A stretch of 64,000 nt of DNA, taken from NCBI GenBank assembly GCA_965226375.1, contig CBDDCX010000008.1, forward strand, positions 864,001-928,000, in the 5' to 3' direction. How positions within the stretch are numbered: position 1 is the first letter of the stretch; every line of letters begins with the position of its first letter. The position numbers are program-made. Below are positions 39,601 through 45,600 of this stretch, piece by piece. The stretch is from Longimicrobiales bacterium. Its GTDB lineage: Bacteria > Gemmatimonadota > Gemmatimonadetes > Longimicrobiales > Gaopeijiaceae.

Positions 39601-42600
39601 CTCGAGCGTAACACGAATCGCGCCCTGAAACAACGACTTCAAATCCTGCCGTAACTCTTCTTGCGTGGCCCGCTCAACTTCAACCATCTTTTCCATGAGG
39701 AAGCTCCTTTCCGGTTCCGGACCTGCTGGCGCAGGCCCGGACTCCCCGGGTTCGTGTCATGATGAACATTCACAAGGAGCTTCCTCTCTTTTTCCCGGGC
39801 TGTCCACCCTCCCCGGACAGCGCACCTGATGGTTAACACAAGTGTGCCAGCTGATGGTTAACAGATTGGCTCGCGTTCTTCGCTTGCGCTCAGCATCTTT
39901 GGCGCGCAGCAGAATCGCAATCCGGTAGATGGCCCAATGGACTTCAGATGACAGCCAAACCGTCGATTCGCACCTTGGTTCTAATCAGCGCGTCGCTGTA
40001 TGCCGCATTCTGCTCCCTCCCCTTCCTCCATCCCGCCCTAAGGAGGGTCCTCGGTGAGCCGGCTGACGTGGCGCAGATGTCAGCATTTTTCTGGCCGTAT
40101 CCGCTCTTCCTTAGTCTGTTGAAAGGCCTGGAGGGAAGTACAGCTACCTGGCTATTGGTAGATTTACTGGGTCTCGGAGCGGTCGTGCTTGGCTCGGCGT
40201 ATGCGTTCAGAAAACTCCGCGCCCTCGACGTCAAGCAGTGGTTCTTATACGCTGTCGCTCCGCTGATTTGGTATCTCCCGCTGCTGGGGGTTCAATTGGT
40301 CGCGTTTGGCATAGCCTTTATTCTGGGCATGGATATCGGCGAGTAGGTGGGTGAGCAGGGCTCCGAGGTGGTGGCCCGCGTGCAGGAGCTGGAGGAACGC
40401 CTAAGGGTGGCTTACGGTGATTTCTAAACAGCTGCTGTCGCGGTGAGCAAGCTATCACCGCCCGTCTAAGCGACGAGAGCCTTCCGGCCTACCCAGGATA
40501 CCGAATAAACCCCGAAGAAGCTCAGAACGTGAATACAAGCGTCCAACGGTCTTCTGCTTGCGCCTACCGGACCGCTCTCGGATGTTGACCACGGCCTGAT
40601 CCCGGAGTGCGCCCGTGTCCGATTCCGTCGCTCGTCTGAACGCTGTCCTTGGTCGCGTCGCCTCTCTCATCTTTCCGGCTACCGTGCTGAGCCTGGCCCT
40701 CGCAAGCTGCTCAGGCTCGCCATCCGGCTCCACGGTGCTGACGGCCGACATGCCGCTGCATCTGGAGCAACACCTAGACGCTGCCACCATCGTCGGCTCC
40801 GAAGTGCCGGTGGACGCTCCGACCGTTATGGAGTGGCACTTCGACGAGCCGCAGGAAGACTGGTAGCCGGCGGTGCCGTGGAACCCTACGAACGAGCCAG
40901 TCGAGGTCACGCAGCTCGAGGACGCGGTTCGTGTCACGCTGACGGACGGTACGAGGAATCCGAACGGCTTGCCGAGGGGCGGCATCGTTTGAGACGTGCC
41001 CGATTGGGCCTACGAGGATCTGGCGCACCTCGTGGTGCGTGCTCGCACGTCCGATGATGTCAGGAACATCGTGATCAACTTCAACCGACGCGAAGGGAGC
41101 GGGACGGATACGGACTTCCCCATGCCATTCGCTCACCGAGGCGAAACGGTCCCTGTTGTAAGCGACGGTACGGTGCAGACCTACCGGCTGCGGCTGGATT
41201 TCTTTGGGTGGCGCCCACGACCTGAGGGATCGATCCGGCAGCTCGCCCTGTGGTTCGATCCCAGCGATCTGGCCAGCATCGACATCCTTTCCATTACACT
41301 GACCACGAAGGTGGCCAACTACGCCGAGACGGGCGCCGCCTCGCGCACGGAAATCCGCAACCGGATTCATCGGCAGGCTCTGTATACCCACACGCCGGGC
41401 AGCGTAGAGTATCGGGTGAAGGTCCCGGAAGGTGGTCGGCTGTTCTACCGCAATGGAGCCGACGAGTTGGTGGCTGCACAGGTCACTACAGGTCCAACGT
41501 TCACGGTGGGCCAGCAAGAGGTGCTGTTTTCCCTCGCCGGGTACTATTCCGGCAGGGGTCATCCTCAATACGACGTGACGCCCGACGATCAGCGATTCGT
41601 GATGCTGAGGTTCGGGGATGAGGAGAACGCCGAACTCGTCTTGGTCCTGAACTTCTTCGAGGAGTTGAAGGAGCGGGTGCCGAATTGAACCGTCAGGTCC
41701 CTTGGCTGCGCGTCTTCGTGGAAGGCGTGGTGATCGTCGGCTCAATCCTGCTGGCGTTCGGACTTCAGGCGTGGTGGGACGGCGTTCAGGCGCGTGCTAC
41801 GGAGCGGAGCTACCTGCTCTCGCTCGGCGAAGAGTTCAGGCAGGCGCGTCCCCAACCAATGCGCGAACGGTCCCTTCGCTACGTCGCAGCCCTCATTGAC
41901 CAAACGCAAGGCGAACGGCTTGATGAGCCCGACTCCTTGTACCGTTGGACCACAGGGCTGTCGCAGCAGATCGAGTTCGATCCACCGCGCGCTGTGTTTG
42001 ACGATTTGGTGTCAGCGGGAGCGACGCAACTGATACGATCAGACAGCCTCCGACGGGCATTCGCTCGCTACTCGTCCCGGTTGGCTGCGTTGCGGTACGC
42101 TGACGCCCAGGCCTGGGCAACATGGGAGCAGAGAATCCAGCCATTCCTCGAGGGTCGAGTCCCACGATTGGAGCGTCTCCGAAACGGCGGGTTCGGGGCT
42201 GCCCCAGACCTTGGCGTCCCATTCGGGCCCTCGCGCCATGCGGCGCAGTGGGAGGAGGTGCTGCGCAGCGCTGGCTTCGAGGACATGCTCGTCGAAAGAT
42301 GGATGCGCCTTCGGCTCGCTAAGCGTCGCTATGACGACATAGTCGAACTCTCCGAGGAAACCCTCCGCTTGATCGCCAAGGAATTGGAGGACCTTGGATA
42401 GCCACACGAGCGTGCACCTTGAGATCAAGTTTGAAGTGCAACACGCAAGGGGTTCATGGTCACAGGTCGCGGACCCGATAACGCCCGTCTAAGCGACGAG
42501 AGCCTCCACCCTACCCCTGATACCGAATAAACCCCGAAGACGCTCAGAACGCGAATACAGGCCCCTAGACGGCTTCTTGCGAGGTCAGCGAGAAGTTGAG

Positions 42601-45600
42601 CTTGCGCTTCCCGACCTGCGGATAGGATGTTGAGCGGGTCTGATTGTGGAGGTGTGCCTGTGTCCGATCTCGTCGCTCGTCTGAACGCTGTCCTTGGTCG
42701 CGCCGCCTCTCGAATCTTCCCGGTTACGGTGTTGAGCCTGGCCCTCGTGAGCTGCTCACGCTCGCCATCCGGCTCCACGGTGCTGACGGTCGACATGCCG
42801 TTGCATCTGGAGCAGCACCTAGACGCTGCCACCATCGTGGGCTCCGAAGTACCGGAGGACGTTCCGACCGTTATGGAGTGGCACTTCGACGAGCCCCAAG
42901 AAGATTGGAAGCCGGTGGTCCCGTGGAACCCAACGCACGATCCGGTCGAGATCACCCAGCTCGACGACGCGCTGCGAGTCACGTTTACGGACGGTACGAG
43001 GAATCAGTACGGCGGGCTGGATGGCGGCCTGGTTCTGGAGGTGCCCGATTGGAACTACGAGGATCTGGCTCATCTCGTGGTGCGTGCTCGCACCGCCGAT
43101 GATGTCGGGGGCTTCAGGCTCGCCTTCAATCGACGTGAAGGGCCTGGGAGGGAGACACGCGGTACAGCCTACCCTGATCCTTTACACAATGGCCTACACT
43201 GATGGTTGACAGGTTCCTATCAACCAGGGTTCTGCAACAAGGAGAGCCCGATGGACTGGAACCGGTCGACCATGTACGAGCAAAGAGTACGCTTCATCCT
43301 CGAAGTGCAACAACGGACGTTCAGTTTCGCCGAGTCCTGTAGGCGCTACGGTATTAGCAGGACCGCGGGATACACCTGGTGGAATCGCTTCCGCGCAGAG
43401 GGATTCGAGGGACTTCAAGAGCGATCGCGCCGACCCCATCACTGCCCGCACGCCGTGGAGGAGCCGATCGTCGAACACGTCGTCGACCTGCGTCAGCGCT
43501 ACGGTATGGGGATCACGCAAGATCCGTAAACTCACGAGCTGAGAAGTTTGGCTCGGCCCCAGTTCGCAGGACGATCGATCGCATCTTCGAGCGTCACGAC
43601 CAGGGAAAAGTGACATCTACAGCCGCTACGTCGTGGGATGGATGGTGGCGGCGGGAGACGGCCTCCAGCAGAGCTGCCTGAAGCATGGCGTCCAGCCCCG
43701 GGTCCTGGCACTCGGATCGGGGAGCTCCAATGACGAGCCAATGCAGCTCAACTTCTCGCTGACCTCGGCGTGACCCGCTCGTTGAGCCGGCCTCAGGTGT
43801 CGGATGACAACCCGTTTTGAGTTCAAAACCTTGAAGTACCATCCCTCGTTTCCCGGACGGTCGGGGATCAGGGCCAAGCCAAGACGTTCTGTCGATCGTT
43901 CTTCCGCTGGAGCACCGCCATGGCGGCATCTCGCTAACCCCCGAGCAGGTCCACTTCGGGAACGCCGATCAGGTCATTGCCGGCAGGAAATCCGTGCTCC
44001 GCGAAGCATGGGCCGCTCATCCCGAACGCTTCGTCGCCGAAGCCCAAACCGCTCCCGGAGGCCGTCTTCATCAATCCTCCCATCCCTTCCCTCACCACAC
44101 AGGACATTGCTCTCTAATTAATCCCGTAGAGTGTCCCATTGTCGTTGACAATGCGGTCTGGACCGTCGACTTCAAAGGGCAGTTCAAGATGCGCAACGGT
44201 CGCTACTGCTACCCCCTCACGATCCAGGACGGCTTCAGCCGGTTCCTGCTCGAGTGCACAGGGCTGTATTCCACGTCGATCGAGCTCGCCAAGCCTGTGT
44301 TCATCAGGACTTTCCGCGAGTTCGGTCTGCCCGCCGTCATCCGCTCCGACAATGGTACGCCCTTCGCTTCCATCGGCCTCGCTCGCCTCACACGCCTGAG
44401 TGCCTGGTGGATCCGCCTCGGTATCCGTCCTGAGACCATCGAGCCGGGTAAGCCGCAGCAGAACGGCCGACACGAACGCATGCACAGGACCCTCAAGCGT
44501 GAAGCCACTCGCCCGCCCAAGGCCAACCTCAGTGCCCAGCAGCGCCACTTCAACGACTTCCGCCACACATTCAATCACATCCGCCCCCACGAGGCGCTCG
44601 ACGACGCTACTCCCCATTCCGTCTACCGATCGGCTCTTAGAGCCTACCCCGACGTCCTTCCGCCCATCGAGTACCCTGAGCACTTCGAGGTCCGTAAGGT
44701 CTCTACAAACGGAGCCATCCGCTGGCACTCGCGTTGGATCAACATCAGTTCGGCTCTGGGCAACGAGTTCATCGGGCTCGAACCCATCGGCCCCGCTCTG
44801 TGGCAGGTCTACTTCGGTCCCACTACCCTCGGGTGGTTTGACGAAGAACTCTTCGTCATTTTCGACACCCACGGTAACACAGGACGTAACCCAATCTGTT
44901 AACCATCAGCTGGCACACTTGTGTTAACCATCAGGTGCGCTGTTCACGCTTCCGCCAGTACTTCGAGTACGATGGCGAGCCGGTCACTGTTGTAAGTGAC
45001 GGTACGGTGCAGACCTACCGGGCGCGGCTGGATTACTTTAGGGCTTCTCCACCGGAGGACCGATTCGGCAGATTGCCCTGTGGTTCAACCCCCGCGATCT
45101 GGCCAGCATCGACATCCTTTCCATCACACTGGTCCCGAAGGTGGCCAACTATGCCGACGCGGGTGCGGCCTCGCGCACGGAAATCCGCAACCGGGTCTAT
45201 CGGCAGGCTGTGTATACGCACACGCCGGGGCGCGTGGAGTATCGGGTAAAGATCCCTGAAGGTGGCCGTCTCGACTTCGCGATGGGTGTCTTGCGTGAGG
45301 ATGTGCCCGTGACCTTTCGGGTCACGGCGACCGCCGACGGTGCCGAAGGCAGTGAACCGACCACGCTGTTTGAGGAGCACTACGCGGCAAAGGAGACCTG
45401 GGGCCAGCGTTCGGTGGATCTGACCGACCTTGCCGGCCAGACGGTGACGCTCGGCCTCGAGGCCGATTCGGAAGCCGAAGGGCGGGTCGCTTTGTGGGGA
45501 GCGCCTACCGTGACGGGCGGCGGCCAGTCGTCTCTTCCCAACGTCGTCTTCTACGTCTTCGACGGCGGCGCAGCGGACTACATGAGCGTGTACGGCTACA

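Follow-up and report, generated by a model that had tools for sequence, protein, structure and literature searches.

It is an open question how acquired genes, which often lack a promoter, gain a point of entry and signals for expression outside integrons. The question is raised by a 64-kb stretch of a Longimicrobiales bacterium (assembly GCA_965226375.1, contig CBDDCX010000008.1, positions 864,001-928,000 of the forward strand; hereafter the window, and its genome G000). Here the start of a much-duplicated Ser/Thr kinase gene (its first few dozen codons, hereafter the kinase head, with the promoter upstream) precedes unrelated genes. The genome-wide survey's note had ascribed this to recurrent recombination at both kinase termini. 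An expanded signalling family appears to provide both entry point and expression signals.

Organization of the window

The left edge of the variable island is a tRNA-Val(TAC) gene (38019..38093; ARAGORN), which also borders the orthologous island in genomes G001 and G002. This gene and all features below are on the + strand, except for an IS256-family transposase gene (38515..39696, − strand; PF00872). An IS end cuts the left side of an attC site of family 2, whose right part (39864..39929) was recognized with a profile from whole G002 attC sites. Behind it lies a membrane ORF of 132 aa (39948..40346), a probable integron cassette without any Pfam match.

The order module-promoter-head, sulfatase, kinase tail and membrane gene is then found twice. 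Module copy 1 (40455..40545) carries an SOS box (40499-40518), with a third half-site lying 11 nt beyond it, and is followed by a predicted promoter, termed promoter A (40558..40586; −35 TTGCGC, 17 nt, −10 GATGTT). The first kinase head stub (40615..40651) has 12 codons and shares its frame with the signal peptide of a sulfatase-family lipoprotein gene, of which the 5′ third is present (40652..41438), with two in-frame stops. This part ends at the join with a kinase tail (41439..41688), the end of a beta-propeller terminating in ELKERVPN*; in contigs of three runs, the tail is found on other upstream sequence (1.6-1.8 kb). Its stop codon is overlapped by the start of a membrane-anchored gene (MNRQVPW..., 41685..42401). 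Searches of Pfam and NCBIfam did not assign the membrane-anchored genes to a family, and the Atlas cluster of this one, with DUF6090 on 15% of members, offers a lead only.

The second unit starts with module copy 2 (42479..42565; SOS box 42521-42540) and a predicted promoter A (42602..42631; −35 TTGCGC, 18 nt, −10 GATGTT). Head stub 2 (42660..42696) has a junction identical to that of stub 1; this junction lies within positions 42615-42838, a stretch that short-read contigs reproduce with no differences in two runs belonging to two studies. The 5′ part of sulfatase copy 2 (42697..43199) is split from its frameshifted remainder (44935..46975; PF00884) by an IS481-family element that is itself interrupted (43200..44934; PF13011, rve). 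A second kinase tail remnant of about 17 codons (47000..47051) and another membrane-anchored gene that shares its 5′ end with the first (47049..47765) complete the unit. Further on, the right part of another family 2 attC precedes a related membrane-anchored gene (49037..49596). At the orthologous locus, G002 carries two whole kinases followed by the same membrane gene family.

Both window copies of module, promoter and 37-nt head fused in frame to the sulfatase are therefore present as first described, and the third in-frame copy reported for G000 was recovered at C7:609103. All three chimeras are broken. The leaders of window copy 1 and of the C7:609k copy are 87-100% identical for about 300 nt and 37-68% identical beyond. 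The chimera had been considered local; this holds for the in-frame form, found only in G000, but not for the association itself, since a kinase stub precedes 5 of 22 sulfatase homologue loci outside G000, including most of the closest (three in G130, one each in G059 and G075; breaks near nt 83, 105-112 and 130). The eight places where a kinase end meets a membrane gene were also recovered, seven with the whole gene start and one truncated.

Kinase heads, their promoter and the SOS-box module

Hanks-type kinase domains number 6-45 per genome in these bacteria. Most belong to one family, in which the start and the last 15-20 codons are conserved and the propeller between them is variable, and many copies lie within tRNA-linked islands, amid integron cassettes and IS. 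We read 48 heads in G000, 19 with a whole kinase domain and 29 reduced to stubs. The stubs of the earlier description are thus real, but its count (about 24 heads) was too low, and its stub size of 10-30 codons too narrow: they range from 5 to about 68 codons. Their right ends (breaks) are scattered over nt 10-203 from the kinase start, at or before nt 150 in 28 of the 29. Along an 840-nt DNA profile of the domain, copy depth in G000 falls from 34-36 (nt 21-61) to 23-26 (nt 161-700), with just about four interior-only fragments, which indicates that the head excess is real and not an effect of detection. The same pattern is seen in five related genomes and in marine metagenomes. Strong kinase-domain matches number 7 in G075, where stubs make up 29 of 31 heads read, and 37 in G002, where they make up 8 of 32. 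Intact heads have a median pairwise identity of 80% (820 pairs). The codon-position bias of stubs (0.083/0.048/0.281, against 0.067/0.032/0.295 in intact heads) is retained, which fits refreshing from working genes.

In the promoter-A subfamily of kinases, the 110-bp module represents the native upstream region. Of its 12 matches in G000, 10 precede a head. The survey's note had confined its box part to G000 and a single G002 copy, but we found it in G075 (16 of 20 promoter-A copies read) and in metagenome loci (40 of 136). It also occurs in three named MAG records, left out of these counts because they may overlap genomes already used. Conservation of the module weakens gradually leftward, often taking in the end of another gene. 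Upstream genes are oriented toward the module, whose left flank often corresponds to the end of another membrane-protein family, for which Pfam gave no match. The promoter pattern proved to be a real motif of the lineage: with the kinase family's own promoters left out, a gene follows TTG-N3-N18-SATSTT at 100 nt or less in 49 of 99 cases, against 5-14% for other spacings. The captured promoter is predicted to express the cargo.

The module box does match the SOS box of the genome, whose consensus is TTCGG-N5-ATTCGG. With a matrix from six sites, which gave 28 matches over 13 bits, six module copies score 26.7 bits and the recA site, absent from the training set, 19.4 bits. The box core is intact in 39 of 49 module copies. 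The survey's note had placed some cargo under this LexA box; however, SOS control of the cargo is unproven, because in 30 of the 36 copies measured 41-42 nt separate the box from the −35 element downstream of it (30 nt in three), whereas in lexA (C8:1757684) and an imuB-like gene the box sits between −35 and −10, an overlap that the module box does not have. A −10 element (TATCCT) directly follows the box, arranged as in the imuB-like gene, but a search for a leftward SOS promoter at the module found no good −35 and no gene beyond. As tabulated in PMC9578287, the alphaproteobacterial LexA box is the direct repeat GTTC-N7-GTTC. The G000 box resembles it in being a direct repeat with an 11-nt period, upstream of lexA, dnaE2 and the imuB-like gene, and differs in its motif. 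Our literature search found no paper describing TTCGG-N5-ATTCGG for this phylum.

Identity steps at shared junctions and their origin

Identical junctions between stub and cargo recur across genera, with cargo 94-99% identical and heads mismatched at 15-29% of positions. For the junction at break 149, shared by G000, G002 and G075, pairwise mismatches number 36, 25 and 19 of 124 in the head, and 2, 3 and 1 of 150 in the cargo of the same pairs (Fisher p 5e-12 to 2e-6). Similar steps occur at break 122 between G002 and G075 (20/97 in the head versus 6/150 in the cargo) and at break 128 between G075 and a metagenome locus (24/103 versus 9/150). The clean step, located inside the head as in a one-sided homologous crossover, is limited to these three junction families. 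The fourth, at break 80, has a weak step (6/55 versus 1/150) and upstream sequences 93% identical, so this unit moved whole. In the stepped pairs, the upstream regions are unlike (promoter A, promoter A plus module, promoter B, attC), and no pair has like flanks past the promoter; the loci at which the units lie do not match either. Near-identical cargo behind heads and promoters that differ at the level of paralogues argues for crossovers inside the head. Core DNA next to the loci is only about 80% identical between G000 and G002 or G075, so the cargo moved recently.

Recurrent recombination is therefore borne out for the kinase start by direct sequence evidence, and makes a weaker case for the kinase end. 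Among 85 starts classified, head and tail both surround one cargo gene only (in two genomes), plus the two window units, and 41 have no known repeat within 3.5 kb downstream. The break-122 cargo (ABM family) has a kinase head before it and a kinase tail after it in G002 and G075, and an unstubbed copy in G011. The unit at C7:177.5k corresponds to an empty site in G001, G002 and G075; no target duplication was seen by eye in this filled/empty pair. For the head of the G000 break-149 unit, the best match (90%) is an intact kinase of the same genome. Across stubs there is no clear preference of this kind: the nearest intact head comes from the same genome in seven cases and from another in four for G000 (three ties), and in one and five cases, respectively, for G002. 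Where both parents are known, by-eye inspection found 2-10 nt of microhomology at four joins (breaks 122, 38 and 37, and the window tail join), judged without a null; it is unclear or absent at other joins. Among 56 joins with a called gene, 7 are in frame and 12 translationally coupled, no clear excess over a rough chance expectation made without a formal null; genes were called with our own codon model, and some 'opposite strand' calls are miscalls. Genes for recA, comEC and Ku are present.

On balance, we think it likely that homologous or homology-facilitated recombination uses the kinase head as a landing pad, one that is present in many copies and brings a promoter. A rare illegitimate join would initially fuse a head to foreign or downstream DNA, either through a deletion or where an incoming fragment has its non-homologous end, with the 2-10 nt of microhomology noted above. 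Next, as the sequences at the stepped junctions show, the head tip and its cargo move between genomes and recombine within the head of another kinase paralogue, leaving the same cargo with a different head and promoter. The body of the recipient kinase may finally be lost, the far end being settled at another repeat (kinase tail, other head, attC, membrane-gene start) or illegitimately. In this model the head is used by general recombination, and no site-specific enzyme is needed. The landing-pad model leaves the clustering of new joins within 150 nt of the start unaccounted for.

A stronger version, which we regard as improbable, would make the heads a distributed, integrase-free platform for gene capture under selection, in which the kinase family offers dozens of interchangeable promoter slots. 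Cargo tipped with kinase heads or tails would circulate among genera as replacement cassettes, some of them silent integron cassettes that thereby acquire a promoter, and the module with its LexA box could couple expression or recombination at the slot to DNA damage, by analogy with SOS and integrons. A benefit to the cargo is not supported, given the lack of excess of in-frame or coupled joins, the broken sulfatases and the stubs made by internal deletion.

Such deletions, which join the head to later kinase parts and do not require transfer, account for 5 of the 29 G000 stubs. They raise the alternative that kinases spread and were then each deleted down to the promoter needed by the next gene, the stubs being otherwise inert. 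Head-to-tail joints also occur in short-read contigs of three runs and as protein P0116, stubs are many where whole kinases are few, one orthologous site carries a tail only in G001, two heads in G002 and nothing in G075, and left remnants of an upstream gene differ in length as well. This explanation cannot produce a junction at which two genera share cargo 98-99% identical behind three different heads and promoters; moreover, the extra change in stubs, only about 1.6 points at codon positions 1 and 2, is too small for slow stepwise erosion. Deletion probably accounts for the initial fusion and for a share of the stubs; as the full explanation we consider it unlikely. Units could also have entered whole, a resident paralogue later overwriting their head and promoter through gene conversion or crossover, in which case recombination in the head is unchanged but the head is not the entry point. 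Overwriting predicts an equal identity step, the break-80 unit did travel with its own promoter, and the sulfatase leader has been exchanged among copies within G000. Because flanks differ in every pair and the loci do not match, it needs a separate second entry route, of which none was seen, and we find it distinctly improbable. Chimeric joins at a repeat in metagenome-assembled genomes are a concern in principle, all sources being uncultured assemblies, the head being a repeat and no short-read contig spanning a whole unit. An artefact is nevertheless extremely unlikely, as contigs from runs of two separate studies cross the window junction with no difference, the junctions repeat in independent genomes and heads about 20% apart can be distinguished.

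The module might instead be an attC- or attI-like site of an integron integrase, or of another tyrosine recombinase, induced by the SOS response. One integron integrase scores above cut-off at C4:70278 (TIGR02249, 308 bits), on a contig without stubs, the module starts close to a TAAC, and 8 of the 28 attC profile matches have a head or promoter at most 5 kb away, all 8 co-oriented, against 8% for random positions (a generic attC scan, with 144 matches that were mostly chance, served only to seed the profiles). The attC-like look of the module is ruled out by its folding (z of −0.3 to 0.5 on both strands of both window copies, against −1.2 to −2.8 for true attC sites of family 2) and by its variable ends. 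With a graded left end and breaks spread over nt 10-203, there is no fixed crossover point, and no integron integrase was seen beside any module copy. We judge a site-specific system very improbable, and the variable ends have already largely refuted it. Several related candidates were rejected. Against an origin from attI or an integrase promoter, the module profile has no match near 10 integron integrase loci; as to a dif-like site, the dif pattern detected the terminus site, not the module. A reverse-strand cassette boundary at the TAAC does not agree with upstream genes that face the module and a left flank that is often the gene end of another family. A transposon or MITE does not fit a module or stub in which both ends vary.

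Relation to known systems

True attC sites do occur in the same tRNA-linked islands: the orthologous G002 island has four whole sites, and the window keeps two right parts only. The island, with its attC cluster lacking an adjacent integrase, qualifies as a CALIN; the stubs do not. Compared with integrons and CALINs as described in PMC8618304, the islands share attC sites, cassette-like genes and an IntI in the genome, and a resident promoter would likewise serve promoterless genes. They differ in that neither head nor module is attI or attC, crossovers are not fixed and no integrase is adjacent.

PMC2884548 describes homology-facilitated illegitimate recombination, with a homologous anchor on one side and an illegitimate microhomology join on the other. 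Our case resembles it in the single anchor, the illegitimate far join, where short microhomology was seen at some joins, and the replacement of resident DNA. Here, however, the anchor is a natural multi-copy paralogue head, which comes with its promoter and start signal. Different genera reuse it, and each event regenerates it. In promoter-capture deletion, as outlined in PMC5526668, loss of intervening DNA similarly puts a downstream gene under the promoter of an upstream one, whereas here the fused junction then travels laterally and is grafted anew onto further paralogues. Cassette exchange in polymorphic toxins, as described in PMC3482391, also keeps the 5′ part of a gene constant and swaps the 3′ part by recombination, but its long constant body keeps both function and reading frame. 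In the present case no more than 5-68 codons are left and the kinase domain is lost, most joins are out of frame (7 of 56 in frame) and the cargo is unrelated (enzymes, transporters, sensors).

Our literature search found no description of a kinase-head landing system, and Gemmatimonadota are absent from the main text of a kinase atlas preprint, whose supplements may list these kinases. What appears to be new relative to the known process is the re-grafting of junctions onto multi-copy, promoter-bearing kinase heads in uncultured Gemmatimonadota. It ties the loss of kinase paralogues to the gain of cargo, offers a natural and testable case of homology-facilitated capture, and leaves a footprint, the same cargo behind a different paralogous head, that can be counted in genomes. 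Few members of this phylum are in culture, and the analysis adds an SOS box and a promoter motif for it. Annotators should be aware that, in these genomes, short 'kinase' ORFs and unusual N-termini are in many cases recombination scars.

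Kinase heads and stubs across the lineage

By combining a first-40-codon profile with promoter profiles and kinase-end context, we recognised 48 heads (promoter-proximal gene starts) of the MSDPxxRLNAALEGRY Ser/Thr kinase family in the source genome (G000; 4.2 Mb, 8 contigs); this set derives from 56 profile matches, from which weak or unrelated ones and three start-less fragments were removed and to which four heads from other searches were added. Nineteen continue through the kinase domain, the long ones encoding a Pkinase domain and a PD40 propeller, and 29 are stubs; of these, 28 extend no further than nt 150, and the remaining one reaches nt 203. 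The copy excess is confined to the kinase start, as judged in G000 with a DNA profile over all 840 nt of the domain. The head was matched in 21 of 40 relatives and the promoter region of the window in 3 of 40; G001, G002, G011, G059, G075 and G130 all carry stubs, as do metagenome loci. The genome-wide survey's note had described a kinase start recurring mostly as stubs, and this phenomenon is real and lineage-wide.

When truncated heads are pooled (30 of 37 G002 matches, 30 of 40 G075 matches and at least 127 metagenome loci), 76 of 94 end by nt 150 (median 87), a figure biased by the choice of loci with head or promoter queries; the pool misses heads below about 40 nt, short contigs break at repeats, and the G000 stub lengths are the unbiased measure. 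Selection against longer kinase fragments is a candidate cause of this clustering of junctions, given the N-lobe dimerisation of PknB, and a promoter-proximal break hotspot is a second candidate. Eight kinase heads lie within 21 kb in the relative G038 (C5:2372-23252), mostly spaced by ~2.7 kb. In G075, two different kinase heads are each interrupted at nt 64-70 by the same IS type (loci L286:10785-12498 and L287:9586-11339).

Head/cargo junctions and probable crossover

Comparison of 93 stubs with all sequence in the analysis revealed 28 that share their junction with another locus (some being overlapping loci or near-identical contigs) and 21 with an unstubbed counterpart. Where a junction is common to different genera, identity changes stepwise at that point. 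For the junction at nt 149 of the head (break 149), found in G000, G002 and G075, cargo mismatches amount to 1-3 of 150 bases versus 19-36 of 124 in the head, and the upstream region differs in each genome; the cargo is a 130-aa ORF whose start lies within the stop codon of the stub. The same step is present at breaks 122 and 128; at break 80 the unit moved whole. The median identity of intact heads is 80%, and that of core DNA in the flanks about 80%. Since near-identical cargo follows diverged heads with different upstream regions, crossover inside the kinase head is the simplest reading, which supports the recurrent recombination at the kinase start proposed by the survey. These comparisons demonstrate, at the sequence level, the step in which head-tipped cargo moving between genomes recombines inside the head of another kinase paralogue. 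We infer DNA uptake and RecA dependence of the capture, the origin of each first head/cargo junction and cargo expression from the captured promoter. The process works like homology-facilitated illegitimate recombination (PMC2884548) together with promoter capture (PMC5526668); capture is built from known processes, without a dedicated enzyme. No description of kinase-head capture was found in the literature searched.

The stubs might alternatively be plain deletion relics, and 5 of the 29 in G000 are indeed internal deletions. The codon-position bias of stubs is nearly that of intact genes, and stubs are not reliably closer to kinases of their own genome. Flanking by both head and tail (the last kinase codons) is rare: a whole foreign gene lies between them in 2 of 85 classified starts, 41 have no known repeat downstream and a further 16 are too near the locus end. 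In G002 and G075 the break-122 cargo is flanked by a head upstream and a kinase tail downstream; the G011 copy has neither flank. The joins are varied: 7 in frame, 12 coupled, 20 uncoupled and 17 opposite, with 12 lacking a gene call.

In the sulfatase chimera of G000, the head is joined, at short shared bases, to a gene whose close homologues begin with M(T/S)(F/L)GR, and a later graft placed its leader on a distant paralogue. Stops or IS disrupt each of the three chimeric sulfatases. A fumarate-reductase-like operon sits between two G000 stubs; its G002 counterpart shares 96% identity and terminates in a 4-codon head. The operon occupies different sites in the two genomes, next to a tRNA fragment in G002 (L303:5363-8875; L309), and was therefore recently transferred.

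Promoters and the SOS-box module

Two upstream types precede the heads: promoter A (TTGCGC-N17/18-GATGTT, short leader) and promoter B (TTGTGG-N18-CATCTT, 6 nt to the ATG). With the family's own copies removed, 49 of 99 genome-wide cases of TTG-N3-N18-SATSTT in G000 have a gene no more than 100 nt downstream, versus 5-14% at spacers of 16, 17, 19 and 20. The motif with N18 is thus a genuine promoter element; support is weaker for a promoter role of the N17 form, to which window copy 1 belongs. The -10 of this motif, TTG-N3-N18-(C/G)AT(C/G)TT, has no usual first T. A unit at C7:177.5k, whose site is empty in three relatives, ends within a promoter-A fragment.

The module, a ~110-bp stretch upstream of promoter A, belongs natively to the upstream DNA of the promoter-A kinases: other genomes carry it in front of long or whole kinase domains. 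Among the species genomes that were scanned, its pattern matched six stretches, every one from Longimicrobiales or Gemmatimonadetes. The box it carries keeps an intact core in 39 of 49 copies. This box matches sites ahead of lexA (TIGR00498), dnaE2 (NF004225) and an IMS-family gene, and a matrix built from six sites of this kind recovers recA as well. SOS boxes in G000 (C7:254376, C7:270594, C7:282791, C8:229267, C8:1757633-1757659 and C8:1488615) lie upstream of lexA, dnaE2, the IMS polymerase gene, a divergent repair-gene pair and recA; our labels imuB-like and uvrC-like are presumptive. The SOS box of the lineage is a direct repeat, TTCGG-N5-ATTCGG, and the module box resembles the direct-repeat box given for Caulobacter in PMC9578287. 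The survey had placed some cargo under a LexA box: the box itself stands, but SOS control of cargo is unproven, because 41-42 nt separate the module box from the -35 that follows it (30 of 36 copies), whereas in lexA and the IMS gene the box falls between -35 and -10. G000 has a second lexA-like gene at C8:1317854.

The module showed no fold (z near 0) and no sharp left end, conservation declining over ~25 nt past TAAC. In 13 of 52 copies it includes the end, of variable length, of a member of a different membrane-protein family whose termini are conserved. Membrane proteins of 300-500 aa form an unnamed family, conserved at the ends and variable in the middle, which occurs alone or fused to kinase or cyclase domains (L302:4179-4313; proteins P0009, P0025, P0042 and P0024); Pfam gave no match for its membrane part. 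A Group II intron reverse transcriptase ends ~150 nt upstream of one module copy (L052:19137-19982).

Integron cassettes and tRNA-linked islands

G000 encodes an integron integrase on contig C4 and has two families of attC sites; 8 of its 28 attC profile matches have a head or promoter no more than 5 kb away, each in the same orientation, compared with 8% of random positions. The orthologous island of G002 holds, in order, four whole attC cassettes, the module, promoter A, two whole kinases and an MNRQVPW membrane gene, and the first cassette after intI in G009 and G024 is, as read by eye, a related membrane-anchored gene. Integron cassettes therefore supply some cargo; the stubs are not integrase products. 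An array of ~155-nt attC sites adjoins a truncated tyrosine integrase (L038:6048-9043, G000 C6:228048-231043; L022, L023), and the same attC family occurs in G002. At L055:6218-7430, L061 and L062, the integron integrase is followed on its own strand by a GTTAG site and a cassette-like gene, an inverted layout.

The window corresponds to C8:864001-928000 of G000. The variable island that holds the finding starts at tRNA-Val (38019-38093 of the window) and contains many IS; the ends given to the IS481 element in the window are presumptive. Genes for tRNA-Val, Asn, Leu, SeC, Thr and Arg adjoin several head-bearing islands in G000. A short stretch, GATCAAGTTTGAAGTGCAAC, is common to window positions 42418-42478, C7:609.3k and C2:14769, left of some module copies and close to the end of a tRNA-linked element. 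A small ORF remnant with …EVTFRLSPHYGIYSAREAHDWF… recurs close to tRNA-linked island ends (L302:5045-5326; L050, L289). A 59-kb contig of G000 carries 17 tRNA genes clustered next to a tyrosine integrase (C2:1703-3908). Dif-like sites occur in G000 at C8:1150894, C8:2266392 and C4:159, one near a skew turning point and a second type on two contigs.
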